Part shown: piece after piece, positions 1-44,200 of the stretch
How the letters are laid out: each line of letters begins with the position of its first letter
How positions within the stretch are numbered: the first letter of the stretch is position 1
IMG/VR virus record: IMGVR_UViG_3300020442_000017
Location: 1-64,000 of that record
Origin: a virus
DNA: 64,000 nucleotides
Strand: one strand, 5' to 3'
Program-made: the position numbers and the translations under genes
Notes under the pieces: generated by a model
The model's database searches: none
Told to the model about the DNA's origin: nothing
What the model saw: only the letters and a program-made list of their open reading frames with translations

Positions 1-3000
1 TCTACATGGGGTATTTGTGGTATCTGGGCAAATGGTTTGAAAGCCACTGGTTTCAAATCAATGGTTATCGCTCAGTACACTGGTGTATCTCTACAGAAAG
101 ACGATAGAGCATTCATCCGTTACGACGAGTTTACCAACACATTCAATCAAGCATCACTGAAGGATGCATTTGCTACTGTTCCTTATCATACTAAGGGTGA
201 TGCATTCTGGAAGGATGACTGGAGAAACTTCCACGTTCGTGCATCTGAAGACGCATTCATTCAGTGTGTTAGTATCTTCGCCGTTGGTTTCGCTGATCAC
301 TTCCTAATGGAAAGTGGTGGTGATATGTCAATCACCAACTCTAACTCTAACTTTGGTAACACATCCTTACATGCTATTGGTTTCAAAGGATTTGCATTCA
401 ACCAAGATAAGGGTGGTTATCTAACAGACATTATTCCTCCAAAGATTGTTGAGGAAGTAGGAAATAGTAAGAAACAAGCATACTATACTATTGACGTTCA
501 GGCATCTAACGATCAAGGAAACCACACCAAACTATATCTTGGTGATGATAATGCTTATGTCCCAACTGAAAGACCTGCTGCTACAATCGGTGGTTATCGT
601 ATTGGTGCGAAGTCTGATGAAAAAATCTATGTAAAACTATCACCAAGAACTACTGGTGGTAATAGTGAGTTCAATGCAACTCTAACTCCAAATGGATTTA
701 AGAAGTTTACTGCTACTCCAGATATTCTAAATCCTAATGCTGCACAGGTTAATAATAAAGCACAAGATGCTGCTAATCTGATTGAAGCAAACAAAGAATT
801 TATTGCTTATGAAGCATATGGTTACATCACTGCAAAGTATCCAGCACTTCTAGTCAAGCAAAGTATTCAGATTGTTAAGTGTCGTCGTGATATTGGTTAT
901 CTACTTGATGCTACTATCCAAGACTTGAGACTTGGTGGTAACATCAATACTATTCAAGCTGCTGAATCTTATTATGTTAAGAGTGGTGGTACTGATAGTC
1001 TCAGTTACATTAATAATGAACTGCAAGAAACTCTAGAAGGTTACTACTATGCTAGAGATCTAGCAATTGCTGCTCTTCGTAACTATTCATATAAGAGAAC
1101 TGGTGTAGAGACAACTGCTGGTAATTCTATCATCAAAGTTGGTGATAGCAGTGGTATTGTACCAGGCATGACTGTTGCTGACTACGCACCTAGTGAGTTT
1201 GAGAATGCACAAGGCACTCAAACAAATGATCTTAAGAATGGTGCTACCAGACCAGCACAACCTGTTATTCCTGACAATACATTTGTTAAGCGTATTGTTG
1301 ATGCTACCACAGTTGAACTTGGTCAGAGAGCAACAACTAGCGTCAAGCAAGTAGTAGCAGATCGTAATGGTGATGCAAGAGAGTTGATTCTTGCTAACAA
1401 GACATTTATTGCTACAGAAGCATATGAAAGAATGCTTCTTGATTATCCTAATTACACACCTTCTACTGGTTATAATGCAACCACAGGTAAGGCAAAGTGT
1501 ATTGATGACCTAGAGAAAGCAATTGAAGCAGTTGCAGAAAACACTGCTTTTGGTGGTAATGCTGATACATGGGATGCAGCATACTATTATGATAGTGGTG
1601 CTGTTCAAGATCTAGCAGCAAAGAAAGACGAAACTATTACAGCATTTAATTACTGTAAAGATATGGCCATTCAGGTCATGCGTAAAGAAGATGTGTTCAT
1701 CTTTGGTACTCATGGTCTAACACAGTCTACAGTTACACCTAATGACCCTGTTACTGAAGAACAGGGAGAACTAGTTAATGATAGAAATGGTGATGCTCGT
1801 AATCTAATCCTTGCTAACAAGAATCTAATTGCTCATGAAGCAGTTCAGAGAATGATTCTTGAATCATCAACAGATCAATTCACACCTACAGGTGCTGTAT
1901 ATGATCCTACTGCTGGTGATCTAACACTTACAATCTCTCAGCATGGTCTAACTGGTGCTGATTCTTATACTGTACAGAGTGCAGATTATGATCCTGTAAG
2001 TGGAAAACTAACAGTAACTATTCCTAACCATAGTTTTGGTAACGGTGAAAGAGTTAAGTTTGATGATAACTCTCTTACCTTTACATGCTCACAGGATAGT
2101 AATGCTACCAACCACACATATCCAAGAGTAAGCGACCCTGTAAGTAATAAGTGGTTGCAAATTTCTCACGTGACCACAAATACTTTTGAGGTCAATGTTG
2201 GTGATACTCTTGATGGTAACTACACTCATACATTTGTATCTGCCGTCACTAATGGTCTTAAGAGAGCAGCGGATAGTGTAAGATTTGATTACAATTCATT
2301 CACATTTACATGTGCGATGGATTCTTCTGAGCAGAAGACATATCCTCGTATTGGTGATCCTGCTGGTGGTAGAGTTCTTCCTATTAGTACAACAACTGCT
2401 GATACTATTACAGTTGCAGTTGGTAAATCACTACTAGTTGATCATGATGTAACCACTGCTGATTACGATCCAAATTCAGGTGAACTTACACTAGACATTG
2501 GTGCTCACAATCTTTCTGTAGGAACTAGCATCAAGATTCCTAATAACGCACTATCATTCAAGTGTGCTCAAGACAACTTCACTGCTGTTAAGACATATCC
2601 ACGTGCAGGTGTTGATCCTTATGCTGATAAGGCAATCAAGATTGAAAAGGTAGGATCTTCTTTCCATACAGCAACTGATGGTGCATACAACCCCACCACT
2701 GGTGATCTAACAATTACAATTCCTAATCATGGTTTTGCTAATGGTAGTAGAGTTAGATTGGCAGATAATTCATTCACATTTACATGTGCAATGGATAATT
2801 ATGCTACTGAGCATTCATATCCAAGAGAGGGAGATCCTGCAAGCGGTGAGTTCTTAGATGTTTCTAATGTAACTACCAATACATTCACAGTTAATGTTGG
2901 ACCTGCTGGTTCTACACAACAGTTCACACCTACAAATGCATCATATGATTCTGCAAGTGGTGAACTAACTCTTACCATTGCTGGTCATGGTTTAGGTATT

Positions 3001-6000
3001 GGTGAAGGTGTTGTCATTGCAGATAATGCACTATCATTTACCTGTAACATGGATGGTAATGATAGCACAAAGACATATCCACGTACCAACAAGGATAATG
3101 CATCTTCTAGATCTTTGTCTATTGTCAAGAAGACTACTGATACCATTACATTAAATGTTGGTAATGCTGGTAATAACAAGACATTTACTCCTACAACAGG
3201 TTCATATAATGAAACAACTGGTGCTTTAGATCTTAACATTGGTCAGCATGGTCTTGCTGTTGGATCTAACATTGTACTAAAAGATAATTCAATTAGATTT
3301 ACATGTGATAAGGATGGCAACCAGAGTGTTGAGAGTTATCCTCGTCCTCAGGTTGACCCATTTGCAGGTAAATCTATTGAGATTACTGATGTTGCATACA
3401 CAGAATCTACTGCTACTGGTGCAACATACAATCCTCACAATGGTGATCTAGAGATTACAGTTCCTAGTCATGGATTTACTGGTCCTCAAGAGTTCACACC
3501 TCTAGTTGGTCAAACTGCATACGATGCAGCGACTGGTGTTCTAACACTTCAGATTCCTAACCATGGTCTACAAAATGGTGAGTATATCAGAATTAAGGAT
3601 AATTCACTAACATTTACTTGCACCAAGGATAGTGATGCTACTAACCACACATATCCACGTGCTACTGATCCTGCTAGTAATAAGGATCTAGTTGTTAGCA
3701 ATGCAACTCAAAGCACATTTGAGGTCAATATTGGACCTGCTGGTGGTTATGGACAATATGTACACACATTCGTATCTGCTGCGACTGGTGCTGTTACTGC
3801 TGGTGGTGATTACATTCAGGTTGCAGATAACTCTCTATCATTCAAGTGTAGTCTAGATGGAGATACTAGTGCTAAAGCATATCCTCGTACTGGATTTGAT
3901 CTACCTAGTGGTAGATGGTTACAAATCAGATCTACAACTGCAAATACATTTGTTGTTAACGTAGGTAAGTCTTCTAATCTCTCTACTCATACATTTGATT
4001 CTGCTGTTGCTAATGGTATTAGAAAGCAGACTGGTGTTATCACAGTTAATGTTGGATTTGATAGCAATACTAACAACCAATACACTCATACATGGGATAG
4101 TGCTTTAGCTGATGCTGTTGAGTTTACTCCTCAGTCTACTCATACATTTGTATCTGCTGTTTCTAATTCTGTATCCCATGCTCCAGATGCAGCACATACA
4201 TTTAAGAGAGCAGCAACTGGTGGTGTTGCCAGACAGAATGGTACTATCACTGTTAATGTTGGTGCTGCTGCTCCAGCAGACAGATACATTCACGTCTGGG
4301 CAGGTGGAACTGCTACTGGTGCTGTCAAGTCTGGTGGTAATTACACTCATGCTTGGGTATCTTCTGGAAATGATTCTGTACATAAGGTATTCTCTATTGC
4401 TGGTAACAGAAACTATCACGACCAAGATTGTGTTGATGATGCTGTAGATGTACTAGAGGCAGTTGCAGATAACGTAGCGTTCGGTGGTAATGATAAGACA
4501 TGGGATGCTGCTTACTCATATAAGACTGGTGCTCACGTTGCTGGTGAGGAGACTGAAACTAATGAAGTCTTCCGTCATGCTAAAGAAATGGCTGGTCAGG
4601 TTATCAAGAACCAAAAGATTCTAAGAATTGGTAACCATGGTATTAGTCAGGTATATGATACTACTATTACTGAGGATGATCCTACTTCTGTAGATAATAA
4701 GAGTGGTGATGCATACAATCTATTGATTGATAATGCTGCATTCATTGCTTCAGAAGCATATGATAGAATGATCTTTGAGTTCCCAGACTTCACACCTCCA
4801 ACTGGTAACCCACAAGATTGTAAGGATGATATCAAAGACTTCGTTGTTGAGATTGCTCATAACGTAGGATTTGGTGGAAACGATAGAGTTTGGGATATGT
4901 CTAATCTCTATGTTTCTGGTGCTCATGTTGTAGGTGAAGAAGCACAAACTCTCAAGGCATTTGAAGATGCTAAAGAGATTATGGTTCAGGTTGCAAGAAA
5001 TGAAAAAGTTCTTGTGAGTGGATCACATGGTAAGACTCAGGCATTTGATAATACTATTACAGTAGATGCATCTACACCAGTTAATAATAAGGTTGCTGAT
5101 GCTAGAGATCTAATTCTTGCTAATAAAAACTTCATTGCTGAGATTGCACTAGGAAGAATGCTTGCACAGTATTCTAACTACATTCCAGCACAGGGTTATA
5201 CTACTAACGATTGTCTTGATGACCTCAAGGATGTTGTAGATGTTGTAGCACATAACCTAGCATATGGTGGCAATGATCGTGTATGGGATGCAGCACTTCT
5301 ATACAATGCAGGTGCTCATGCATCAGGCACTGAGAACGAAACTGTTTATGCATTCAATCAAGTTCGTGATATTATCAGACAGGTAATTGTTAATGATACA
5401 GTTACAGTTGATGGTCACACAGCACTAAGTCAGTCAACTGATACATCTATCACAAATGGTGTTGCTAATGGTGATTGTGATCAGGCAAAAGCAACTGTTA
5501 CTACACTCGTTAGCATTCTAACTAATGCTATCAATACACCATCTTCACTATATGGTATTACTCGCACTGAGTCTAGTTCTAAGTGTGTTGCTGTTGTATC
5601 TACAATCAATACACTATATGATATCGTCAAGAATTCTATCACAACACCTGAAAGTCTTCAGTCTGTAACTAGAACTGTTGGTGGTGGTAAGTGTGACAAC
5701 ATCAGATCTACTATCAATACACTATTTGGTATTGTTACATCTACTGTTGCTAATGGTTCTGCACTAAATTCTATTACAAGAAATATCTCTAACGGTCCTT
5801 GTCAGGAAGTTGCATCAACAGTTACCACACTATTTGGTATTATCACTAATAGTATTAGCACTGCTGGTTACCTAGACACCATTGATAAGACTGAGATTCC
5901 TCTTGGTCTAACATTGGGTCAATCTGTTAATGCTAATTCAACAACTACAGATACCTATCTATGGTTCCAATGGCCAACAACTGGTGGTGTAGCAGACGAT

Positions 6001-9000
6001 GGTATCTACACAGATAAGAAACCAGTTATTGATCCATTCTTTAACAATGATCCTGCCAACGTTGGCAATCAGGATACAAGTTATCCTGAATGTGCTAATG
6101 AAGCAAGTGCTGTTCGTCAGTACTTCACAAATATTGGTACAATCATTCAGTCTGGTTTGGGTAGTGTTGATAGGAATGAACCTACTTCTTCCTCTGCACT
6201 CTCAAGAAGAGCAACTATCTGGACATTAACAGATACATCTAAGGCACCTGCTAATCAATCTGATCCTCATAAATTTGAAACTGGAACACCAGTAAGACTT
6301 GTTCCACGTCCTAAAGCTGGTAAGACAGTTGATAAGCGTAATGTAAGACTACCAAATGGTTTTGATACTAATACTGAATACTATGTAATTGCACCAGGTA
6401 GAGAGACAAATCCACAAGATTTCTCTACAACAACATCATTTAATGGTCTTCAGCAAGACGTTCTAATGCTTGCAAGCAGCAAAGAGAATGCTGCCGCTGG
6501 TATCTATCTACACTCTCAGGAAGTTAATGGTATTCACCCTGACATTGAGATTGATCTGTATCAGTTCACTATTGATGATAGTTATGATCTACATCAATAT
6601 GTTTGTGTTCTTGTAAACAATGGTATTCAAACTGATGTATCTCACATCTTTGATCTACCTAAAGCAAATGTACCTGAAGGTCATCAAGTATTCTTCAGAG
6701 CAGCACCTGGCAAAGATATGCCTACGGTTGGTGGTACTGATGCTAATGACCCTGCTGTTGCAGAACAGTCTGGTGTAAACATTGGCAAACTTAGAGGAGA
6801 TGTATTCTTCTGGGCAAGATATATCACACCTAAGGTATTCAAGATCTATAGATCTCATGCTGATGCAATCAGTGATGTTAATTCTATTGATCTAACATCT
6901 TCTGCTAACATTGGTTTCAATGTATTTGCTAACAAGCGTACATCACCAATGCGTTATGATCCTTCATTCATTAACCCAGCGGTTAGTGATAAGGGTAAGT
7001 GGTTCCTACAAGTAGAACCAAATTCTTCTGGAGCACCTGCAACATCTCAAGAGATTCTTGCAAGACTTCATGACGCTGAATATAACGATGCATCTGGTAA
7101 CACCAAAACTAATGATACTTGGTACACACGTCTGAAGGATGATAGAGTTCCTGATGATCGTATCTATCGTCTACGTTATGTAATTCCTAGTTACCTCAAG
7201 TCTGTTCGTGATCCTCTAAATGGATTCACAATCAAGATGAGGAAGGATGAAACCAGAAAACTTCTTCCACAAAGAATTGTTCTGAAGCCTGCATCTGGAA
7301 ATGCTGTAACTAAGGCGGTCTTCAATAATACCACAGATAGTGGTCAGGCAAATGAAATCATCGGTATGACCGCTGCTCAGTTTGCTAATCCTGGTGGTAA
7401 TCAGAATGCACTTGATACATCTAAGAGATATGATCCTTATAGGAAGGATCTAACAGGTGGAGGTAAAGAGTATCAAGCATATATTAGAACTGACTCTACA
7501 ATTCAGGCAACAATCCAGTCTGGTAGATACTTTATTGATGGTGTAAGTGGTGATGAACTACTAGAACTAACTGTATTTGACCCTGAAATTGATTCTCAAG
7601 TTCCTGCACTTAAGAATGAAACTCTCACCAGTGTTAAGATTACTGCACCTCAGGGTGGTAGTTTTGTTTCTAATACTGCTAATCCTGTTAGTGGATACTT
7701 CCAGAATACTAAGGTTGAATGGGATGGTAATGATAAGGGTACTGGTTATATCCACGCTGCTCTAAATGTACCTGGTACTACAACATGGCACCTAATTCTT
7801 AAGGGTATCAGTGGTACTCTAGATTATAGTTCTACTGAAGACACTAGATTTACACAGGTTCAGGGTAGTACAGTTGTATTTGCTGATCAACTTCAGGATC
7901 CTGATGATGGTAAGTCACTAGAACTTAAGGAACTTATTCGCAAGGGTTATCCACAATATTATTATAAAGAGAAGTCATCTAACGTATACACACTAACTCC
8001 TGGTGATACTATTACTGACCAAGCAGGTAATCAATATTACATTGATTCTGTAAATGATATTGGTGAGATTGAAGACACCTTCTATATCTTTGATGTTGAA
8101 ACAATTCAAAGACGTATTTTTGAGCAGCAAGATGGTATCTATTATCTAACTGCTGTACGTGGTAATGTTTCTCCATTCCCAACTGGTGCTGGTAACTTAG
8201 GTAACTTTAGAAACTTCAAGTTCTCTCAACCAATCAGCAAACTATATCCACTAAACTATAAGAACGATCCAGTATGGTTCAAGCAATTAGATCCTAACTT
8301 CGTTGATCCTCCAGCAACATTCTCTGCTGCTGATAACTATGTTCATGGTCTAGTTACTGTCAATGACTTTAAAGGTTCTATCACCAAAGAATCTATCATT
8401 GATATCATTGAATCTCCTGCACTATCTAATAATACTTACACAGGATCTAATGTTGTTCAGGCACAAGCAGGTAATGCTGCTTCTGGATCTGAAGATCGTA
8501 AGATTCCTATTGCTGGTGACAATACAGTTGTTGTTGATCAAAGACTCTACGTTGAACTTCGTAGACCATCTATCGCTCGTGCTGGTAACCATACGTTTGA
8601 ATATCTTGGTTTTGGTCCAGGTAACTACTCCACTGGTCTACCTGCTAGACAGGATGTTATCCTTACCACAACTCAAGACTTCTATGCACAGTCTAAGAAG
8701 CAAGATGGTGGTCTTGTATTCTACACTGGTCTAAACTCTAATGGTGACCTATACATTGGTAACCGTAAGATTGACGCTATTACTGGTGAGGAAGTATTCC
8801 TAGAGTCTGCACAGTTAGTTGACTCTGAAGATCCTGATGATCTCATTGATAGCCTCGTCACAACATTTGACACTCCTGTAACATTCAACCAGAATATTAC
8901 AGTCAATGGTGGTGATGAAGGTAAGTTAGTCAATACATTCAACTCACCTGTAACAGTTAATGTTGCTAGTGGTTTGGGTCTAAATTCCCTCACCATTCTA

Positions 9001-12000
9001 TCAACTGTTAATCCTAATGCAACTCCAGTTGGAGATGATGAGACACTTGATAGATCTGCACAGCAGGGCAATCAAATGACCAACGGTGACATTGTTCTTA
9101 ATAAGAACATGATCGCTGCTTCTATCTTCCAGTTCAACCCACGTGGTTCTAATGGATTTGCACAAGGTTATAAGATTCAGAACCATGTTGTAGCATCAGA
9201 AGGTTCTAATGCTACTCCTTCACAAAGTGCAACCGATAAAGATTACTTTGATAATACTCAGGTAGTTCGTTATGGTACTAATGGTCCCCTACCTGTACCT
9301 GGCGACATCCTACTCAAGGGTGATAGTGTTGGTGCATCTGGTTCTATTGGTTGGATTTATGCTAACTCTTACTATGTACTAGGAGATCAAACTGCTAACA
9401 ATCCTGACCAAGTATTCAATGTTGTATTTGATGGTAGTAATCTAGTTAGAATTAACTGGAAGAATGCCAAACAGAATGATTCCTTCGGTCCTAAGATTAC
9501 ATCTGCCACTAAGATTAGAATTAAGAATTGCAGTGTACCACAACTCAATGGTGTATTCAGCGTTGATCCTAATACATTCAGTTCTACTAATGATTACATC
9601 AAGATTGTTATTGGTGCAAATGTTACTAACTCTCCAATTGTTTGGAACAATGAAGTTAATGCTTCTATGGAGTATGCTGATACTTCATGGAAAGAGTGGG
9701 GTGTTCTTGGTTCTGAGGCAATCAGAACAGAAACATCTACACTAACTGATTACAGAGTTGGTATTAACACTGTCGCTAGATCTAGCAACACAGATGCTTG
9801 GAAGACTTCATTCGTTAATACTTCTACTATACCTAAAGCTAACCTAGATGTTGAAGGTAATGGTATCATTACTGGTTACAGTATTGCATATGCAACTGGT
9901 AATCGTTCTGCCATGGAAAATGCATTCGTGGTTGGTACTGCAACACCTAATGATCTAACACAATCTTCTGTCTTCCGCATCAATGCTGCCACCAATCGTG
10001 TTGGTATTAATGTATCTGATGATGGAACTGGTTCTACACAACTTGATAGAACTCTTGTTGTTAATGGTAATGGTAGATTCACCAACGATGTTAAGTTTGA
10101 GCAAGACATTGATGTTAATGGTGGTGGTCCTGGTGCTGCTAATACTGCTGAGATCAGAACTTCTATCACTGATGGAACGTTTGAGTTCATCATGGACAAC
10201 ACATTTGTCGGTCAACATGATGCTTATGCTTCAAGTGTTGGTGGTAGTAATGGATTCAAGATGGCTGGTTATGCCAAGAACATTGAATTTGGTAATGAGC
10301 AATCAGCAATCCAAGAGTTTGAGATTGGTAACAAGGCAAATAAGAGTTTCGTTGATCTAGGTGCAACTCCTGATGGAGACGGTACTAACGCACACATTTC
10401 TAGAATTTCTATTGGTGGTGCATTTGATAGTACTGAAACAGATTCCTATACACAGATTAATAACAAGGAACTAAAAATTGCTGGTGACATTCTACTTGGT
10501 CAAGTTAAGGACAAAGCAACTGGCACTAACACAACCAGAAGAGGTGCTGGAGACACTGCGTTCTTCAGATCAACTGCATCTAAAGTCTCTCTACTAGGAG
10601 ACAACAGTGCAACAACAATCGTTGATTTTGCTACTAATGCATCACAGTTAACAATTGCTGGTCAAGGTGGTAGCACCAGAATTAGAAACAATACAACAGT
10701 TGATGCTACTTTAAGAGTAAACAGTGACATTATATTATGTGGTGGTCTCAACAACTTCTCATTCACTGCTGATAGAAAGCAAGCAGGTTCTAAATCTATT
10801 ATCGCACATACCAATGGTATTCTCGGTAATAATCTTTATAATAAGAATGTAGATATTCTTGATGTCCTAAGAGTTAATGCACCAACAACAACTCCTGTTG
10901 GTAACAAGTCTGCTTATAACAGAATTGATACTGGTGGTTCAGGTACATGGGGTGATGCGACATATAGTCAAGCAATTCCACAAGCAGGATTACCTGCTCT
11001 ACCTACTGGACAATATTACTTACCACTTAAGTTTAGTCCTTTCAATAATGTAACCACTGCTAATCCTGATGGAGATCAGTATTTTAATGAGAATGATATT
11101 CTTCTCATTGACAGTGCTGAGACAGCAACTGGTCATGCTGAATTTGTTAAGATCGTTTCTCTACCAAGAATCGTATCAACAAATGCACCTTACTACATTG
11201 TTGTAACCAGACAACCATTTGGTTCATTTACCAACATTTCCACAACACATGCTGATACAACACCAATTTATAAGGTAACTGTTCAGTTAGATTCTACTTG
11301 GATTACATCTGATATTGATCAGAGTGCTGGTAATAAGACAATCAATCTATCACAATTCGGTGGTAGTCTTGATGTTGCAGATTATGTAATCATCTCACGT
11401 GAAGATGGTACTCCTGCAAATGATGGTGTTGATGATGAAGGTGAAATCTTCAAATTGACAACTGTAATTAACGCAGTTGCGAAAAAATTATCCGTCAAAA
11501 AAGGGTGTGATTCTGCTTCAGAGAAAACAGTATTTGAAGTTGATTCAATTACTGGTAGTGTTACTATCGGTGATGGCACTGAGAATACAAATACTCTAAT
11601 CAACGGTTCACTAGCTATCAAGGGCAAGTGTTCTGCTTCTGATAATGTCTACCCATCTACTGATTTTGCTAACAATAGTAAGTTTACTCTTAGTAATCAA
11701 GAATTACCTGTATTCAGCGTTGATATTTGCACTGGTGATACTGTTGTAGGTCAAGCTGCTGGTACTGTATTTGTTGTTGGTCAATACTATGGATCAACTG
11801 CTGCTGCTCATGATGAAACAACAGTTGTTACATCATATGTTTATGATGCAACTTCACTACAAGCAAATGGTGCTATCACCACACTAGCAAATGCTGTTGG
11901 AACAGGTGACTATGACATTCCTATTTCTAGTAATGTAGATGCATTCCAGAAGGATGACATGATCGCTATTATTGATGGCGATAGTAATATTGAGATCCTT

Positions 12001-13386
12001 CTTATCACTGATGATCCTAGCACTAATGCACAAGGAACTTCAATCCTACCAACAATTTATAATTCTGCATATCCTGCTGGAACATATCCTAATGGTGGTA
12101 GAGGTCAGGAAGATACAGGAGTTGGTGGTGCCACTGGTGGAACATGGAACGCAGGTGCTGTTGTTGTTAAACTCAAGAAGTTTACTGAGACAACATCACT
12201 TATCAATCCAATTCCTGCAACTGGTAGAACCGCTGTTGAATCACCAAACCAAAATGGTAATAAGATCAGAGTAAGACTAAAGAATTCTAATCTTGTTTCT
12301 GACAAATTAGACTATGTTCAGTTCCTCAAGTTTAAGACTGGTACTGATGTTGAGTGGTTCTATCCTGATAGTATTGATGGCAATGCTGATCAACTATTTG
12401 GTGTAAGAACATCTAAGTCTACAAGACTTGATTCTAGTGGCAACTTCCTTGCTACTGGTACTCACACCAGATACTTTGGTGGTGGTGCTCTCAAGGTTCA
12501 TGATCATGTTGAAATGATTGGTGGTAACCTCAGAATGTATGGTTCTGATGGTGAAACTCTAGTCTTCAACGTATCTAACGATGATGACCACTTAGGTGAT
12601 GGTGCTGTCCTTGACGAAAAGACAGGCGTCATGGGTATGTACGTCAATGGTGGAGCAATGGTCGGTGGTGATCTTAAGGTCATCTATGAAAATTGTCAAA
12701 CCAATGGACAATGTAGCAAAGACATCAAATTCCAAGCATTTGGTTCTGATGGTTCTGTTAACATGGGTGAGAAACTTTACATCAAGGGTCAAGTTTCTGC
12801 TGGTGGTAACTCACAAGAACCAATCTTACATATTGATAACCTCGGTGCTGCTGGTAATGCTACAACAGGACCAAGAGACTTTAAGATTTATCAAGATTGT
12901 TCAATTGATGCCTTTGGAATCGCTCGTTACTTCACTAGAAACGGTGGTCGCAGATATACATATGTTGAGCAGTCACTTACTGGTATTGGTCAAACACAGG
13001 CAAACCCACTACAACCTAATAACAACTATCTAATTAATACAAGCACTGGTTCTAACATCGTAATGTATCTACCTGAATATGCAGAAACAGGTGACATGAT
13101 TAGATTCGTTGAGGTTAGTGGTAACCTAACATATAATACAAGTCTAGTAATCAGAGCACTTAAAGTGAACAACGTTCCAGTTGCAATCCAAGGTGATACA
13201 TCTGGTACTAAGATTCAAGCAGGTGCTGGTCAAATGACTACTGCATGGGACAGTGGTGAATTGGTCGTTCAAACTAGAAACGCATCCTTCGGTCTAATTT
13301 ATGTTGGTCCTACTGATGCCGCTGGTGATCCTAATGCATCTACAGTTCCATCCAATCTACGTGGATGGTGGTTAACCGAACTCTAA
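1..13386 (+). CDS. Giant virion structural/fibre protein (5'-truncated, >4460 aa) with 5 phycobiliprotein-like helical modules and 8 YPR-D-P beta modules
   Basis: Frame 1 is open from position 1 (STWGICGIWANGLKATGFKSMV...), so the TTG at 37 is not the true start. Thr/Gly/Asn/Asp-rich, with internal repeats and a C-terminal GWWLTEL typical of cyanomyovirus giant structural proteins. Followed by collar genes. Confidence 0.85.
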   Translation, partial: STWGICGIWANGLKATGFKSMVIAQYTGVSLQKDDRAFIRYDEFTNTFNQASLKDAFATVPYHTKGDAFWKDDWRNFHVRASEDAFIQCVSIFAVGFADHFLMESGGDMSITNSNSNFGNTSLHAIGFKGFAFNQDKGGYLTDIIPPKIVEEVGNSKKQAYYTIDVQASNDQGNHTKLYLGDDNAYVPTERPAATIGGYRIGAKSDEKIYVKLSPRTTGGNSEFNATLTPNGFKKFTATPDILNPNAAQVNNKAQDAANLIEANKEFIAYEAYGYITAKYPALLVKQSIQIVKCRRDIGYLLDATIQDLRLGGNINTIQAAESYYVKSGGTDSLSYINNELQETLEGYYYARDLAIAALRNYSYKRTGVETTAGNSIIKVGDSSGIVPGMTVADYAPSEFENAQGTQTNDLKNGATRPAQPVIPDNTFVKRIVDATTVELGQRATTSVKQVVADRNGDARELILANKTFIATEAYERMLLDYPNYTPSTGYNATTGKAKCIDDLEKAIEAVAENTAFGGNADTWDAAYYYDSGAVQDLAAKKDETITAFNYCKDMAIQVMRKEDVFIFGTHGLTQSTVTPNDPVTEEQGELVNDRNGDARNLILANKNLIAHEAVQRMILESSTDQFTPTGAVYDPTAGDLTLTISQHGLTGADSYTVQSADYDPVSGKLTVTIPNHSFGNGERVKFDDNSLTFTCSQDSNATNHTYPRVSDPVSNKWLQISHVTTNTFEVNVGDTLDGNYTHTFVSAVTNGLKRAADSVRFDYNSFTFTCAMDSSEQKTYPRIGDPAGGRVLPISTTTADTITVAVGKSLLVDHDVTTADYDPNSGELTLDIGAHNLSVGTSIKIPNNALSFKCAQDNFTAVKTYPRAGVDPYADKAIKIEKVGSSFHTATDGAYNPTTGDLTITIPNHGFANGSRVRLADNSFTFTCAMDNYATEHSYPREGDPASGEFLDVSNVTTNTFTVNVGPAGSTQQFTPTNASYDSASGELTLTIAGHGLGIGEGVVIADNALSFTCNMDGNDSTKTYPRTNKDNASSRSLSIVKKTTDTITLNVGNAGNNKTFTPTTGSYNETTGALDLNIGQHGLAVGSNIVLKDNSIRFTCDKDGNQSVESYPRPQVDPFAGKSIEITDVAYTESTATGATYNPHNGDLEITVPSHGFTGPQEFTPLVGQTAYDAATGVLTLQIPNHGLQNGEYIRIKDNSLTFTCTKDSDATNHTYPRATDPASNKDLVVSNATQSTFEVNIGPAGGYGQYVHTFVSAATGAVTAGGDYIQVADNSLSFKCSLDGDTSAKAYPRTGFDLPSGRWLQIRSTTANTFVVNVGKSSNLSTHTFDSAVANGIRKQTGVITVNVGFDSNTNNQYTHTWDSALADAVEFTPQSTHTFVSAVSNSVSHAPDAAHTFKRAATGGVARQNGTITVNVGAAAPADRYIHVWAGGTATGAVKSGGNYTHAWVSSGNDSVHKVFSIAGNRNYHDQDCVDDAVDVLEAVADNVAFGGNDKTWDAAYSYKTGAHVAGEETETNEVFRHAKEMAGQVIKNQKILRIGNHGISQVYDTTITEDDPTSVDNKSGDAYNLLIDNAAFIASEAYDRMIFEFPDFTPPTGNPQDCKDDIKDFVVEIAHNVGFGGNDRVWDMSNLYVSGAHVVGEEAQTLKAFEDAKEIMVQVARNEKVLVSGSHGKTQAFDNTITVDASTPVNNKVADARDLILANKNFIAEIALGRMLAQYSNYIPAQGYTTNDCLDDLKDVVDVVAHNLAYGGNDRVWDAALLYNAGAHASGTENETVYAFNQVRDIIRQVIVNDTVTVDGHTALSQSTDTSITNGVANGDCDQAKATVTTLVSILTNAINTPSSLYGITRTESSSKCVAVVSTINTLYDIVKNSITTPESLQSVTRTVGGGKCDNIRSTINTLFGIVTSTVANGSALNSITRNISNGPCQEVASTVTTLFGIITNSISTAGYLDTIDKTEIPLGLTLGQSVNANSTTTDTYLWFQWPTTGGVADDGIYTDKKPVIDPFFNNDPANVGNQDTSYPECANEASAVRQYFTNIGTIIQSGLGSVDRNEPTSSSALSRRATIWTLTDTSKAPANQSDPHKFETGTPVRLVPRPKAGKTVDKRNVRLPNGFDTNTEYYVIAPGRETNPQDFSTTTSFNGLQQDVLMLASSKENAAAGIYLHSQEVNGIHPDIEIDLYQFTIDDSYDLHQYVCVLVNNGIQTDVSHIFDLPKANVPEGHQVFFRAAPGKDMPTVGGTDANDPAVAEQSGVNIGKLRGDVFFWARYITPKVFKIYRSHADAISDVNSIDLTSSANIGFNVFANKRTSPMRYDPSFINPAVSDKGKWFLQVEPNSSGAPATSQEILARLHDAEYNDASGNTKTNDTWYTRLKDDRVPDDRIYRLRYVIPSYLKSVRDPLNGFTIKMRKDETRKLLPQRIVLKPASGNAVTKAVFNNTTDSGQANEIIGMTAAQFANPGGNQNALDTSKRYDPYRKDLTGGGKEYQAYIRTDSTIQATIQSGRYFIDGVSGDELLELTVFDPEIDSQVPALKNETLTSVKITAPQGGSFVSNTANPVSGYFQNTKVEWDGNDKGTGYIHAALNVPGTTTWHLILKGISGTLDYSSTEDTRFTQVQGSTVVFADQLQDPDDGKSLELKELIRKGYPQYYYKEKSSNVYTLTPGDTITDQAGNQYYIDSVNDIGEIEDTFYIFDVETIQRRIFEQQDGIYYLTAVRGNVSPFPTGAGNLGNFRNFKFSQPISKLYPLNYKNDPVWFKQLDPNFVDPPATFSAADNYVHGLVTVNDFKGSITKESIIDIIESPALSNNTYTGSNVVQAQAGNAASGSEDRKIPIAGDNTVVVDQRLYVELRRPSIARAGNHTFEYLGFGPGNYSTGLPARQDVILTTTQDFYAQSKKQDGGLVFYTGLNSNGDLYIGNRKIDAITGEEVFLESAQLVDSEDPDDLIDSLVTTFDTPVTFNQNITVNGGDEGKLVNTFNSPVTVNVASGLGLNSLTILSTVNPNATPVGDDETLDRSAQQGNQMTNGDIVLNKNMIAASIFQFNPRGSNGFAQGYKIQNHVVASEGSNATPSQSATDKDYFDNTQVVRYGTNGPLPVPGDILLKGDSVGASGSIGWIYANSYYVLGDQTANNPDQVFNVVFDGSNLVRINWKNAKQNDSFGPKITSATKIRIKNCSVPQLNGVFSVDPNTFSSTNDYIKIVIGANVTNSPIVWNNEVNASMEYADTSWKEWGVLGSEAIRTETSTLTDYRVGINTVARSSNTDAWKTSFVNTSTIPKANLDVEGNGIITGYSIAYATGNRSAMENAFVVGTATPNDLTQSSVFRINAATNRVGINVSDDGTGSTQLDRTLVVNGNGRFTNDVKFEQDIDVNGGGPGAANTAEIRTSITDGTFEFIMDNTFVGQHDAYASSVGGSNGFKMAGYAKNIEFGNEQSAIQEFEIGNKANKSFVDLGATPDGDGTNAHISRISIGGAFDSTETDSYTQINNKELKIAGDILLGQVKDKATGTNTTRRGAGDTAFFRSTASKVSLLGDNSATTIVDFATNASQLTIAGQGGSTRIRNNTTVDATLRVNSDIILCGGLNNFSFTADRKQAGSKSIIAHTNGILGNNLYNKNVDILDVLRVNAPTTTPVGNKSAYNRIDTGGSGTWGDATYSQAIPQAGLPALPTGQYYLPLKFSPFNNVTTANPDGDQYFNENDILLIDSAETATGHAEFVKIVSLPRIVSTNAPYYIVVTRQPFGSFTNISTTHADTTPIYKVTVQLDSTWITSDIDQSAGNKTINLSQFGGSLDVADYVIISREDGTPANDGVDDEGEIFKLTTVINAVAKKLSVKKGCDSASEKTVFEVDSITGSVTIGDGTENTNTLINGSLAIKGKCSASDNVYPSTDFANNSKFTLSNQELPVFSVDICTGDTVVGQAAGTVFVVGQYYGSTAAAHDETTVVTSYVYDATSLQANGAITTLANAVGTGDYDIPISSNVDAFQKDDMIAIIDGDSNIEILLITDDPSTNAQGTSILPTIYNSAYPAGTYPNGGRGQEDTGVGGATGGTWNAGAVVVKLKKFTETTSLINPIPATGRTAVESPNQNGNKIRVRLKNSNLVSDKLDYVQFLKFKTGTDVEWFYPDSIDGNADQLFGVRTSKSTRLDSSGNFLATGTHTRYFGGGALKVHDHVEMIGGNLRMYGSDGETLVFNVSNDDDHLGDGAVLDEKTGVMGMYVNGGAMVGGDLKVIYENCQTNGQCSKDIKFQAFGSDGSVNMGEKLYIKGQVSAGGNSQEPILHIDNLGAAGNATTGPRDFKIYQDCSIDAFGIARYFTRNGGRRYTYVEQSLTGIGQTQANPLQPNNNYLINTSTGSNIVMYLPEYAETGDMIRFVEVSGNLTYNTSLVIRALKVNNVPVAIQGDTSGTKIQAGAGQMTTAWDSGELVVQTRNASFGLIYVGPTDAAGDPNASTVPSNLRGWWLTEL

Positions 13387-39447: not shown

Positions 39448-41249
39448 TGCCATATACCCAAGTAAATAACTTAGACTTCGCTGATATTAAAACTGCTCTC
39501 AAAGAATACATGAGGGCAGAGACAGAATTTACTGACTATGACTTTGAAGGATCGGTCATCAGTCAATTAATTGATGTATTGGCATATAATACGTACTACA
39601 CGGCGTTTAACGCCAACATGGTAGTCAATGAACTGTTTCTAGATTCATCCACATTACGAGACAATGTGGTAGCACTAGCGAAACAGTTAGGATATGCACC
39701 AAAATCAATAACCTCTCCAAAAGCAGAAGTTGATTTACAGTTATTTTTTCCTAATAATTCACCTAGTAATGTAATTATTAAGAGAGGTGGTGGTTTTGTT
39801 ACAAATTATGATGGTTCTCTGTATCAATACGTAGTAAAAGAAGATTATAAACAACCAGTTGTCAACGGCACTGCTACTTTTGAGGATCTTCCCATCTATG
39901 AGGGTACTCTTATTACTACAAAAACACTTGTAGATACCTCACTTAAGAATCAAAGATTTATTATTGAGAACAATGGTGCTGATACTAGCACACTTACTGT
40001 TAAGGTATTTGAAAATGCAAATTCCACAGCAGAGACTATTTTTAGTAAAGCAGAAAATATCTTAGAAGTAGGTGCAGATGATACTGTATACTTCATCAGT
40101 GAAATTGAAGATGAGAGATATGAGATCTTTTTTGGTGATGGCGTACTAGGAAAGAAACTTGGCAATCAAAATATAGTAGAAATTTCATATGTTGCTACTA
40201 ATGGACCTGTTACTAATGGTGCTAACAACTTCATTTTTAATGGATCTGTTGTAGATGGTGATGGAAATTCACTAGGAGTTCCGTTTTCCGTATCAGATTT
40301 AACAACATCTTCCGCAGCAAGCGGAGGTGCAACTATAGAATCAGTCTCTAAAATTAAATATAATGCACCAAAATACTTTGGATCACAAAATAGAGCAGTT
40401 ACAAGTAATGATTATTCTGCAATTGTGCGGAAGATCTATCCTGCTATTAGCGATATTATTGTATTTGGAGGAGAAGATCAAGAACCACCTGCATATGGTA
40501 AAGTCTTTATTTCAGTAAAACCATCAGAAGCGGCAGCTCTTTCAACTTTTACAAAGAATCAACTAAAAACTGAACTTAAGAAGTACACTGTTGCCTCTAT
40601 TAGACCAGAATTTGTTGATCCTTCTATTCTTTACGTAGAATTGAATACAAGTGTATACTTTGATGGCACTAAAACTCAGTTACTATCTACAGATATTGCT
40701 TCAAAGGTATCAACTGCTGTACAAAATTATTTGACTACCTCAGGAACAGAAAAGTTCAATGGTAAGTTTAGATATTCAAAATTTGTTGGTGTCATTGATG
40801 GTTCCGAACGTGCTATCAATTCAAATGATACCACTGTTACTATGAGGAAAGATTTTATTGCACAAATAAATGCATCCACATACTATGAAATTTGTTATAA
40901 GAATGCATTCCTAAAAGATTGTGATGATCCTGTAGTTTCATCTACTGGTATGACTGTCTTTGAGCATCCTACTTATACTTCATATCTTGAAGATAGAAGT
41001 GGCAAATTAGTCCTATATAGACTAGATTCTATCACTGGCGACAAAATTGTCTTAAATGATTCTGTTGGTGATGTTAATTATGACACAGGTGAAATTAAAA
41101 TTTATGACTTTACTATCCTAAAAGGTAGTTTTACTGACAATCGTATTGAATTGCGTGTAAAACCTGCTAATAAGGATATTGAAGTAAAGCGTGAGATGTA
41201 TCTATCTGTAGATGTATCAAACAGTAAATTCGTTGCGTATAAAGAGTAG
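39447..41249 (+). CDS. gp6: Baseplate wedge subunit gp6
   Basis: LDF..IK..LK..FTDYDFEGS...LAYNT.Y...NE.FLDS; Y.IFFGDG.LG; QNRAVT..DY; PP.YGKVFIS.KP. Confidence 0.95.
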   Translation: MPYTQVNNLDFADIKTALKEYMRAETEFTDYDFEGSVISQLIDVLAYNTYYTAFNANMVVNELFLDSSTLRDNVVALAKQLGYAPKSITSPKAEVDLQLFFPNNSPSNVIIKRGGGFVTNYDGSLYQYVVKEDYKQPVVNGTATFEDLPIYEGTLITTKTLVDTSLKNQRFIIENNGADTSTLTVKVFENANSTAETIFSKAENILEVGADDTVYFISEIEDERYEIFFGDGVLGKKLGNQNIVEISYVATNGPVTNGANNFIFNGSVVDGDGNSLGVPFSVSDLTTSSAASGGATIESVSKIKYNAPKYFGSQNRAVTSNDYSAIVRKIYPAISDIIVFGGEDQEPPAYGKVFISVKPSEAAALSTFTKNQLKTELKKYTVASIRPEFVDPSILYVELNTSVYFDGTKTQLLSTDIASKVSTAVQNYLTTSGTEKFNGKFRYSKFVGVIDGSERAINSNDTTVTMRKDFIAQINASTYYEICYKNAFLKDCDDPVVSSTGMTVFEHPTYTSYLEDRSGKLVLYRLDSITGDKIVLNDSVGDVNYDTGEIKIYDFTILKGSFTDNRIELRVKPANKDIEVKREMYLSVDVSNSKFVAYKE

Positions 41250-44200
41250 TGCCTAAAACTGCGAATAAAATCTCATTCTTAATTGAGTCACAATTACCTG
41301 ATTTCATCAACGAAGAGTATGAACTTTTTACTAAGTTCATACAAAAGTACTATGAGCAGATTGAAATTCAAGGTCAACCGTTGGATATTATCAGTAATCT
41401 CCAACAGTATCGTGATATTGATTTTTATGAGAAGAATGTATTACAACAGTCAACTACTACATCTGCATATGTCCAAAATGTAGACACTACAATTAGTGTT
41501 GTTGATGCGACTTCATTCCCCAAGAATGGTGGTTATATCAAAATTGATGATGAGATTTGTTTTTATAGAGAAAGAACTGATAATCAGTTTTTAGAAGTAA
41601 GTCGTGGTGTTAGTGGAAACACGACCATTGGTGATTTATACGAGAAGAGTACTTTTGTAACTACTCAAGCAGACAATCATATTTCTGGTTCTACTGTACA
41701 GAATATCAGTAATCTTTTCTTATATTCTCTAGTAAAAAGTTTTGAAAAGGAATATCTAGATAATTTTCCTGAAGAGTATTTAAAAAATGATGTTGATAAG
41801 AGAACACTTATCAAAAACATTACTTCTTTCTATAAAGCGAAAGGTACTGATCAATCAATTAAGTTCTTATTCAAATGTCTTGTTGACAATGATCCAGAAC
41901 CACAAGTTTTATATCCAAGAGAACATACCTTAAAACCATCAGATTCTAATTGGATTAGTAACTATTCAATCAAGGCAAAAGTTTTATCAGGTAACGTTAA
42001 CGATCTCATTGGTAGAAAGATCACACAAACTACTGGTGAATATGCTTCTGCTATTGTAGATAACGTTCAGTATTCTGGTAAGTTTGATGGTGAAGATTTA
42101 TATGAACTAATTTTAGCAGAAGGAAGTATTAATGGTTCATTTTCAGTTGCTGCTAGAACTAAATTAACCAAAAATATTTCACCAGGATTAGGTGTTGGTG
42201 ATAGAGTTGATGTGTTTTCCACAATGGGTTGGGAAAATGAAGGTACGTTTACTGTTGGTAATGAAGTATTTTCTTATGAAGACAAGAATGTAAATCAATT
42301 TGTTATTAAATCTAGGACTAGTAATGGTGTATACAGTGATGGAGATCCTGTATTCTTTGGTTCTAATGTAAGTGGTAATGGTGTAGAGTTATTAGTATAC
42401 GGTATTGTATACAACCTAGAAGCAGAAACTAAGTTTCCATATTCATCTACAGGTGATTCTGTAGATATTTCTGATGCAGGATTCCTCACAGATGATATTA
42501 GAATCTTTGATTCTCAAAATAATCTTAGATGGACTATTGGTGGACTTCCACCTGCTGTAAGTGATTTAGTTTCTAATGTATCTGCAATCTTTGAGGATGC
42601 TGACACTTATTACATTGCTTCTTCAGGATTCCCATCTCATAGTATTGGCACACTCCCTGCTGATGCGGCAGATCAAAAGCATCTTAAGATCTTAAGAAAA
42701 AGACCTATCTCAACTACTGAGTCTTATGAGACTCAATTTAGAGACGTTGGTATTGCCACAAATGGAGTTCCTTTCCTAAGTTACAAAGATGAAGATGTGA
42801 TTCTCAATGGACCTCTTCAAAATATTGTTGTTAACAAGAGAGGTAATGGTTATAAGAAACCACCATTCATTCTTGTTAATGGTGTTGCTAATCAAGCAAT
42901 TGCAAATCTTGCTGGTGAAGTAGTTGAATCAATTAGTATTACTACAGCAGGAAGTTATATTGATACACCTATAGTTGAAGTTGTATCTGGCAGAAATGGC
43001 ACAGTAACTCCAATTGTTACTAATGGTGAGGTTACCAGTATTAGTATTGATAATGCTGGTGAATATTATTCTTCACCACCAGAAGTAAGGATTGCTGATC
43101 TTGCAGGCAAAGGACAATTTGCTGTGTTTAAAGCAGAAGTGTCAACTGCTGGTGAATTGACTGGTTTTGTTAAAGTAAATGGTGGTAAAGGATACACTCA
43201 AGGAAATATACTAGTAGATATCATTCCTGTTGGATCTGGTGCTGTTGCTACTGCCAATATCAAAGAATGGAGAAAAGACAGATTTGTAAAGACAAACGTA
43301 GATTCTGAGAATGGTACATTCTTTACCAATTACGTAAGTTCTAATGGTCAGGGATATGCATATCTAGCATCTCCTGCTACTTTGAGAGCAAATGATAATG
43401 GAGTAAATCATTCTCCTATTCTTGGATTTGCTTATGACGGAAATCCCATTTATGGTCCATATGGATACAGAGATAAATTAGATGCAAATTCACCAATCAT
43501 TAGAATGACATCTAGTTATGGTCCATCATCTACAAGAGTTGATGGTCCTGATGTAACTACATATCCAATCGGAACGTTCATTCAAGATTGGAATTATATC
43601 CATGAAAGAGGAACATTAGATAAAAATAATGGTCGTTATTGTGTCACACCAGAATTCCCAGAAGGTACATATGCATACTTCATCACGGTGGATGATCAGA
43701 ATGCTCCTGTATTCCCTTATGTTATCGGCAAGTGTTATTATTCATTACCTGTTGACTCCAACTACAACTCTGAATTAAATCAGTATGATTTACCAAAGAG
43801 TGCAAGAAGATTAAGAACTAGTGATATTGAAAATAATGGTGGTGGTACATCATTACTAATAAAAGATGTAATTAGTGGAAATATTTCATCTGCAACTGTA
43901 GAATCTTCTTCTGACAACTTTAGAGTTGGTTCTAAGTTAGTTATTGATAATAGTGGAACTGATGGAACTGGTATTGATGCGGAAGTTGAATCTGTAACAG
44001 GAAAGTCGGTACTCTCAATTGAGTCTCAAACTGATAAAGTATTATTTGTATCTCTAAAAGAATCTGCATATCTATTTGATGGTGATAGAGTCACACAAGG
44101 AGCAGCAACAGGTCGTGTTGTGGGTAATGTGTTCTCTGGTACTACATTTGCAATTAAGTCGGTCACAGGGTCTTGGAGTGCTTCTGGAACGCTAACTTCC

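Follow-up and report, generated by a model that had tools for sequence, protein, structure and literature searches.

The first 64,000 nucleotides (nt) of the IMG/VR virus record IMGVR_UViG_3300020442_000017 (positions 1 to 64,000; hereafter, the window) open with a giant reading frame for a structural or fibre protein of 4461 amino acids (aa), and the virus from which it comes is a T4-like marine cyanomyovirus. Our analyses indicate that aa 253–2063 of this virion protein very probably constitute one fully nested tree of domains, which has resulted from the repeated insertion of whole domains into the surface loops of earlier ones. The tree comprises 14 domains in 1811 residues and reaches a maximum depth of 11 levels. 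In it, the first phycobiliprotein-like (PBP) helical module (PBP1, level 1) holds a beta insert, X (level 2), X holds PBP2 (level 3), and PBP2 holds PBP3 (level 4), from which two branches depart. The branch located after helix A of PBP3 consists of the beta-barrels A (level 5), B and C (6), D (7), E (8), F (9), G (10), and H (11), whereas the branch located before its last helix consists of PBP4 (level 5) and then PBP5 (level 6). Residue n of the protein corresponds throughout to nt 3n-2 to 3n of the window, and the segments that return to complete an interrupted domain are referred to as closers.

Beta-barrels split into complementary pieces

The residues 627–1462 consist of eight beta-barrel domains of about 103 aa (A to H), which are nested seven levels deep and lie as a whole within helical module 3. 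They were scored with a profile derived from 58 distinct uninterrupted beta domains, all of which came from other contigs, so that the scoring of the window is not circular. The profile of uninterrupted copies matches the interrupted barrels in exactly complementary pieces, which are listed below together with the reading frame that contains them (profile positions are prefixed with h; model ranges are in residues of the AlphaFold2 model of the nest described in a later section; pLDDT, predicted local distance difference test).

1..13386 (+), giant structural/fibre protein open reading frame (ORF): 4461 aa; 5' end open, contig begins at window position 1
1879..1965 (+), beta domain A, piece a: aa 627–655, level 5; profile match 629–653 at h5–29
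1966..2268 (+), beta domain B, complete: aa 656–756, level 6, inserted in A after the HG loop; profile match 655–755 at h2–103 (full domain); model range 58..162–165
2269..2442 (+), beta domain A, pieces b–c: aa 757–814; profile match 757–810 at h29–83
2443..2661 (+), beta domain C, pieces a–b: aa 815–887, level 6, without the VNVG strand; profile match 814–885 at h2–72; model range 217..852
2662..2922 (+), beta domain D, pieces a–c: aa 888–974, level 7; profile match 889–974 at h3–88; model range 292..819
2923..3180 (+), beta domain E, pieces a–c: aa 975–1060, level 8; profile match 976–1060 at h4–87; model range 376/378..801
3181..3408 (+), beta domain F, pieces a–b: aa 1061–1136, level 9, without the VNVG strand; profile match 1064–1134 at h5–74; model range 463..785
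3409..3492 (+), beta domain G, piece a: aa 1137–1164, level 10; profile match 1135–1160 at h2–27; model range 539/542..749
3493..3804 (+), beta domain H, complete and innermost: aa 1165–1268, level 11; profile match 1168–1267 at h4–103 (full domain); model range 568..675
3805..4026 (+), beta domain G, pieces b–d, closing G: aa 1269–1342; profile match 1268–1343 at h28–104
4027..4125 (+), closer of F, pieces c–d: aa 1343–1375, ITVNVG...HTW; profile match 1343–1374 at h72–102; pLDDT 83–94
4126..4182 (+), closer of E, piece d: aa 1376–1394, HTF; profile match 1377–1393 at h87–103
4183..4227 (+), closer of D, piece d: aa 1395–1409, HTF at aa 1399; detected by motif only; model range of D ends at residue 818/819, i.e. 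aa 1412/1413
4228..4338 (+), closer of C, pieces c–d: aa 1410–1446, TITVNVG...HVW; profile match 1412–1440 at h72–100; model range of C ends at residue 850–852
4339..4386 (+), closer of A, piece d: aa 1447–1462, HAW at aa 1450; detected by motif only; modelled strand with pLDDT of about 87; partner not recovered by structural alignment

The complementary profile coordinates place B within A and H within G. A preliminary description of this DNA had listed the motifs and modules of the beta and helical repeats, all of which we find where it placed them, and had proposed that the strands missing from the barrels return in exact reverse order (F, E, D, C, A), with the two barrels that lack VNVG (viz. 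C and F) being those whose closers supply it. Both proposals are borne out by the profile pieces, which for C join h2–72 to h72–100 and for F join h5–74 to h72–102. When the pieces are spliced by a last-in-first-out rule, eight domains of 101–110 aa are obtained that align nearly without gaps, and a stack parser applied to the window records no violations of this rule, as against two for a first-in-first-out rule, at a barrel depth of 7. The five groups of closers could have occurred in 10 possible orders, of which a single one fits; this evidence is weak taken alone, but together with the exact complementarity of the profile pieces and the presence of the same grammar on independent contigs (see below) it excludes chance. 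Searches against Pfam detected nothing for the single beta domains, the closers or module 1 when each was scored alone. A recent duplication of the barrels was also considered and is rejected, as the paralogous barrels of the window are only 32–56% identical as protein and 60–80% identical over short stretches of DNA.

The residues that are invariant in the 58 uninterrupted barrels are His24, Cys43, Tyr-Pro-Arg 54–56, Asp59, and His91 (profile positions). His91 is located on the returning HTF strand of the barrel and, hence, a His/Cys/His site could exist only after closure. We hypothesize from this conservation that His24, Cys43, and His91 make up a candidate metal site, which would form on closure only. 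A short sequence, FTP(T), is also observed at the start of inserted domains, and EFTPQS at the start of the host segment that resumes after F (window 2923–2934, 3181–3192, 3493–3501, and 4123–4131); such a short direct repeat flanking an insertion could have been left behind by the mechanism of insertion.

Helical modules with displaced last helices

The second building block of the tree is a helical module, which a module-specific hidden Markov model (HMM) detects at six places in the window, two of these being the separated parts of module 3; they are followed by five closers. The modules, the beta insert X, and the closing helices are as follows (L066 is one of the related loci in our comparative set; PF00502 is the phycobiliprotein family of Pfam).

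757..1089 (+), PBP-like module 1: aa 253–363, helices A–C, motif KCRRDIGY, level 1; HMM match; 40% identical to the contiguous L066 unit
1090..1344 (+), beta insert X, opening part: aa 364–448, level 2; blastp, L066 query 7–145 against window aa 293–441, E 8e-34
1363..1731 (+), PBP-like module 2: aa 455–577, level 3; HMM match; PF00502 20.3 bits scored alone
1783..1893 (+), PBP-like module 3, first helix only: aa 595–631, level 4; HMM positions 1–35; one globin-like unit with aa 1470–1538 in the AlphaFold2 model
4408..4656 (+), PBP-like module 3, helices B–C: aa 1470–1552; HMM positions 35–117
4699..5049 (+), PBP-like module 4: aa 1567–1683, level 5; HMM match; pLDDT 77–90
5089..5442 (+), PBP-like module 5: aa 1697–1814, level 6; HMM match
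5464..5571 (+), closer helix 1: aa 1822–1857, Cys1826; last helix of module 5
5572..5679 (+), closer helix 2: aa 1858–1893, Cys1862; assigned to module 4
5680..5787 (+), closer helix 3: aa 1894–1929, Cys1898; assigned to module 3; pLDDT 67–82; 11 alignment rows from 1–15 to 455–469
5788..5895 (+), closer helix 4: aa 1930–1965, Cys1934; given to module 2 by elimination; pLDDT 40–46 in a construct without module 2
5896..6081 (+), beta insert X, closing part: aa 1966–2027; blastp, L066 query 176–225 against window aa 2001–2057, E 1e-8
6082..6180 (+), closer helix 5: aa 2028–2060, Cys2032; last helix of module 1

The cysteines of the first four closers (nt 5476, 5584, 5692, and 5800) are spaced by exactly 108 nt, as had been described earlier, and that of the fifth closer, which follows the beta insert, begins at nt 6094. 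The last helix is displaced in four of the five modules, by up to about 1700 residues. The pairing of closers with modules is supported by relatives in which the same units are uninterrupted. In L066, a contiguous unit of 229 aa consists of helices B–C, beta insert X, and the last closer (i.e. the unit of module 1), and its matches in the window are two complementary pieces, viz. aa 293–441 and aa 2001–2057, with about 1560 residues between them. In other clades, modules and closers alternate in tandem (HDHD), each closer standing immediately after its module, or a run of three modules precedes a run of three closers; the direct succession of module and closer indicates that the closer belongs to the module.

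On the predicted models, the helical modules have the globin-like fold of phycobiliproteins, a resemblance absent from the preliminary description. The whole protein scores 31.7 bits against PF00502 (gathering cut-off 22.2), yet the cut-off is not exceeded by any single stretch, and the scores of individual modules are 20.3 and 16.0 bits. In the PDB, a profile derived from 22 contiguous units of module plus closer matches only phycobiliproteins (77 matches at E <= 1, the best at 0.0015), from which it follows that the closer forms the final helix of the globin fold. In a structure search with the model, phycobiliproteins and ApcE rank first, followed by photocobilins and other globins. The module cysteine C44 and the aspartate D47 are invariant in the 22 units, where they align with the KCxRD bilin site of phycoerythrin and phycocyanin alpha (Cys82/84 position), and the leading cysteine of the closer is nearly invariant; in the window, the module cysteines are located at aa 293, 500, 1477, 1607, and 1738, each with an aspartate three residues on. 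Judged from this conservation, the module and closer cysteines could serve in bilin binding, a putative function. Searches of the viral record detected neither CpeT nor a ferredoxin-dependent bilin reductase, a result that is uninformative in a 92-kb fragment that is about 48% complete.

Predicted structures of the nest

Two AlphaFold2 models were analysed, the first covering aa 595–1552 and the second covering the helical nest in a construct without modules 1 and 2; partners were assigned from the end residues of alignments of single-domain PDB structures to the models. The model of the beta nest has a mean pLDDT of 83.7, and the returning segments are predicted as beta strands with pLDDT of 81–94. 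Seven of the eight barrels are recovered as units with the predicted boundaries, and five of these (C, D, E, F, and G) are discontinuous and nested in one another. The observed ranges are 217–219..850–852 for C (predicted 221..852), 292..818/819 for D (294..815), 376/378..801 for E (381..800), 463/464..784/785 for F (467..781), and 539/542..749 for G (543..748), while those of the contiguous barrels are 58..162–165 for B (62..162) and 568–572..675 for H (571..674). Module 3 is aligned to globins of the phycobiliprotein type across the 850-aa nest (model range 1..941–945). The modelling of the nest that the preliminary description had proposed as a check thus agrees with its central idea, viz. 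that a returning strand completes an earlier domain: the discontinuous ranges of C to G end at the predicted closers, and the outcome that it had named as contrary, closers folding among themselves, is not seen in the models.

Confident predictions in the second model extend over modules 4 and 5 and the first three closers (pLDDT 67–94; 67–92 for these closers), and pLDDT drops below 50 exactly at closer 4. The closers of low confidence (4 and 5) are those whose partner modules (2 and 1) the construct did not include, a pattern indicative of reverse-order closure, since first-in-first-out closure would give the opposite pattern and a bundle of closers would show no difference. An alignment range of 76..414 covers module 4 plus closer 2, and the rows that join module 3 to closer 3 number eleven; closers 1, 2, and 3 are in this predicted structure modelled on modules 5, 4, and 3, respectively. 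Where insertions precede VNVG, as they do in C and F, the model shows the chain on its way out and on its way back as unusually long strands of 11–12 residues (window 2632–2667, 3373–3408, 4018–4050, and 4225–4257), and these long strands may represent a two-stranded stalk between host and guest.

Relatives and variation of the nest

The same architecture is present in independent contigs from different samples, viz. L059 (98% identity), L001/L060 (83%), L058 (82%), and L002 (80%). A last-in-first-out parse without violations is likewise obtained for L059, L001, and L002, and these clean parses in independent contigs exclude an assembly artefact. The grammar extends through the family as a whole. 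Our comparative set consists of 136 loci with 95 distinct architectures, which were read by a crude stack parser based on regular expressions and HMMs; 31 of the architectures are clean under a last-in-first-out rule and 8 under a first-in-first-out rule.

Whole domains have been gained or lost at the same loops among these relatives. L003/L020 contain an additional barrel inside B and another inside the equivalent of F, in L005/L004, H is missing from G and a barrel is present within B, and the nest of L006 is deeper than that of the window. Newly inserted domains start at about 25–34, 45–64, 70–79, and 80–89 in the host profile. Some relatives contain about 28 barrels with an apparent barrel depth of up to 13, a figure given by the crude parser whose exact value is not relied upon. 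Single barrels are also observed at two further places, one located within module 3 where its second long helix leads to the third, the other in the linker that joins closer 2 to closer 3 (L003 4747–7167 and L006 5598–7739; A4 alignment columns 53–157 and 640–745); these locations indicate that the return path is permissive for insertion as well. In distant relatives (L120 from 2590 onward, L066, and L065), globin modules are nested after helix A, such that two or three first helices succeed one another before their B–C parts return. The use of a different nesting loop in these loci indicates that both folds employ several insertion sites.

Alternative explanations

The grammar described above would look the same in sequence whether closure occurs within one chain or between chains, and many tail fibres are trimers, a label of tail fibre being also what the PHROG database gives this protein. 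It could therefore be envisaged that the returning strands and helices complete a neighbouring chain of a trimer by three-dimensional domain swapping or donor-strand exchange. We consider this unlikely, because the AlphaFold2 monomer closes the domains within the chain at pLDDT of 81–94, the insertion points have short linkers of just a few residues, which favours local closure, and the uninterrupted copies in relatives need no partner chain. A still less probable explanation is that the openers are degenerate, truncated domains, with the closers folding by themselves as a separate beta-meander and five-helix bundle, since self-association of the seven short strands and the five amphipathic helices is conceivable. 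Such closers are difficult to reconcile with pieces that are exactly complementary to a full-length profile, with structural alignment ranges that end inside the predicted closers, with the presence of His91 of the closer strand as an invariant residue in uninterrupted copies too, and with the loss of confidence at closers 4 and 5 even though closers 1–3 are available for bundling. The repetitive region lies in an uncultured contig of 92 kb that is about 48% complete, which raises the question of a mis-joined, repeat-rich metagenome assembly. We regard this as extremely improbable, given the recurrence of the architecture at 80–98% identity in contigs from different samples, the merely 32–56% identity of the paralogous domains, and a reading frame that is unbroken for 13.4 kb.

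Several observations weigh against a single-chain, fully nested tree. The discontinuous range of domain A is not clearly recovered (rows 58..877–894 are ambiguous), and the pairing of module 2 with closer 4 is assigned by elimination only. The partner assignments derive from predicted models and use the first and last aligned residues only, and pTM (predicted template modelling) scores of 0.52 and 0.60 for the two models leave the relative orientation of the domains, and hence the overall shape, loose. The protein is possibly an oligomer, and modelling it as a monomer leaves room for closure between chains. Over the 95 architectures, the parser also records 222 violations of the last-in-first-out rule, as against 325 of the first-in-first-out rule, many of them in the deepest relatives, where they are probably due to missed short tokens. 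The nested tree within one chain is nonetheless the explanation that we strongly favour.

Comparison with known systems

Domain insertion is common, but it seldom recurs to great depth. In a 2026 survey that covered 2.7 million classified domains, a six-level case was highlighted as the complex example, viz. the SI3 insertion of the RNA polymerase beta' subunit (RpoC2) of cyanobacteria, which in Prochlorococcus consists of eight domains in a six-level recursive insertion (PMC13114784). Its fold family, the sandwich-barrel hybrid motif, has been described (PMC11515920). As in the nest of the window, a small beta domain is recursively inserted in SI3 into members of its own family, discontinuous hosts are closed in reverse order, and bifurcating hosts carry more than one guest. 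The two systems differ in fold (a sandwich-barrel hybrid motif versus a barrel resembling FNR and EF-Tu domain II plus a globin), in context (an enzyme trigger loop versus a virion protein), and in depth (6 levels versus 11 in the window, and an apparent 13 for barrels alone in relatives), and only in the cyanophage protein do two unrelated folds host each other. No RNA polymerase or sandwich-barrel hybrid motif chain is present among the structural matches listed for the nest models. The principle is shared with SI3, and these matches give no indication of membership of the same family.

The closest known structures to the barrels are those of phage endosialidases (phi92, 4hiz; K1F endoNF, 3gvk), the lambda tail-tip protein (8k35 and 9e7m), and E1 enzymes (4p22). 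Phycobiliproteins (PF00502; phycocyanin and phycoerythrin beta), ApcE, and the bilin-binding globins of photocobilins share with the helical modules their fold and the Cys and Asp of KCxRD. Phycobiliproteins are, however, free-standing subunits of about 17 kDa that form alpha-beta monomers and discs, whereas the cyanophage modules are parts of a 4461-aa chain with the last helix far removed, and the similarity is marginal (E 0.0015; 16–20 bits). A looser analogue is provided by flagellin, whose chain also runs out and back so that both ends are located at the base. In flagellin and the hook-associated proteins, the D0-D1-D2-D3 hairpin has paired terminal helices with the outer domains between them, giving two to four levels of unrelated domains, and these proteins polymerise through D0/D1. 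No homology of the cyanophage protein to them was detected, no search aimed at it having been made. Neither for the nested architecture nor for phycobiliprotein-like domains in virion proteins of cyanophages did a literature search, which lacked most subscription journals, yield an earlier description, and the family, its two folds, and its depth appear to be undescribed so far.

Proposed mechanism and significance

The two building blocks of the tree would be a phycobiliprotein-like globin, whose final helix starts with a conserved cysteine and is separable from the body of the domain, and a beta-barrel of about 103 aa with about four permissive loops at the profile positions where new domains open in relatives. 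On its way out, the chain would traverse PBP1, X, PBP2, and PBP3 in turn, and within PBP3 the barrels A (with B), C, D, E, F, and G (with H), and it would then run back through the barrels, supplying each missing strand in reverse order. A second excursion would lead to PBP4 and PBP5 and return via the five closing helices, with the remainder of X closing before the last of them. Each interrupted domain would in this manner be completed by sequence that returns later, and the entry and exit of the 1811-residue excursion would adjoin. Folding could be vectorial and proceed from the inside out, as the innermost domains, which are made contiguously, would fold first and every emerging closer would complete the next shell. 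Guests that hang off loops would be side branches rather than load-bearing links of the chain, and the result would be a branched appendage on which many divergent barrels are displayed. The tree may thus be a rigid side branch for contact with the host surface; the number of barrels varies between phages, as would be expected for such contact. The family would have grown by insertion rather than by tandem duplication.

A more far-reaching version of this proposal, which we hold to be rather doubtful though worth stating, is that the family grows mainly by self-insertion to give the deepest natural nests (at least 11 levels), that the closures are clamped by His24-Cys43-His91 (possibly with a metal) and by bilin-bearing cysteines, and that inside-out folding is thereby enforced, the outcome being a pigmented, metal-stapled, branched appendage.

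These results suggest that the giant proteins of marine cyanophages are branched trees that display many divergent modules, and they redefine a large block of sequence in these abundant phages that has been annotated as "hypothetical" or "structural". The nests offer a natural series for studies of the folding of discontinuous domains, including its inside-out order and the avoidance of misfolding between paralogous neighbours, as well as a direct view of insertion competing with tandem duplication in evolution. For protein design, they reveal loops of the barrel and the globin that tolerate guests, and for structure prediction they provide a benchmark. The globin identity of the modules raises the question of whether the virion carries bilins.

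Genomic context of the giant protein

The frame runs open without a break over its 4461 codons and off the 5' end of the contig. As the window starts at base 1 of the contig, the N-terminus of the giant protein is missing. Module 1 starts at residue 646 of the open frame in L002 and at residue 253 in the window, and several hundred N-terminal residues may be absent from the latter. The giant protein matches tail-fibre and virion structural families of PHROG (phrog_4527, 5342, 529, 18802, and 701) with E values of 0 to 1e-129 in HMM searches. Homologues, all of less than 60% identity, were detected by tblastn in 383 records of Synechococcus and Prochlorococcus myoviruses; cultured relatives that carry the family include Syn19, S-RIM2, S-P4, and phages of the ACG-2014d type. 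Megablast matched the region to none of 50,697 phage records, so that its relatives in that collection are recognisable at the protein level only.

The genes downstream of the giant ORF are short-tail-fibre-, collar- and chaperone-like, and genes for baseplate wedge subunits are located farther on. Among the latter is a giant ORF of 2802 aa (41249–49657), whose PHROG matches are mixed (virion structural protein and baseplate wedge subunit). The beta and closer HMMs detect no barrel and no closer in this ORF, but it contains one copy of the phycobiliprotein-like module at aa 1905–2005 (window approximately 46955–47257; HMM positions 4–103).

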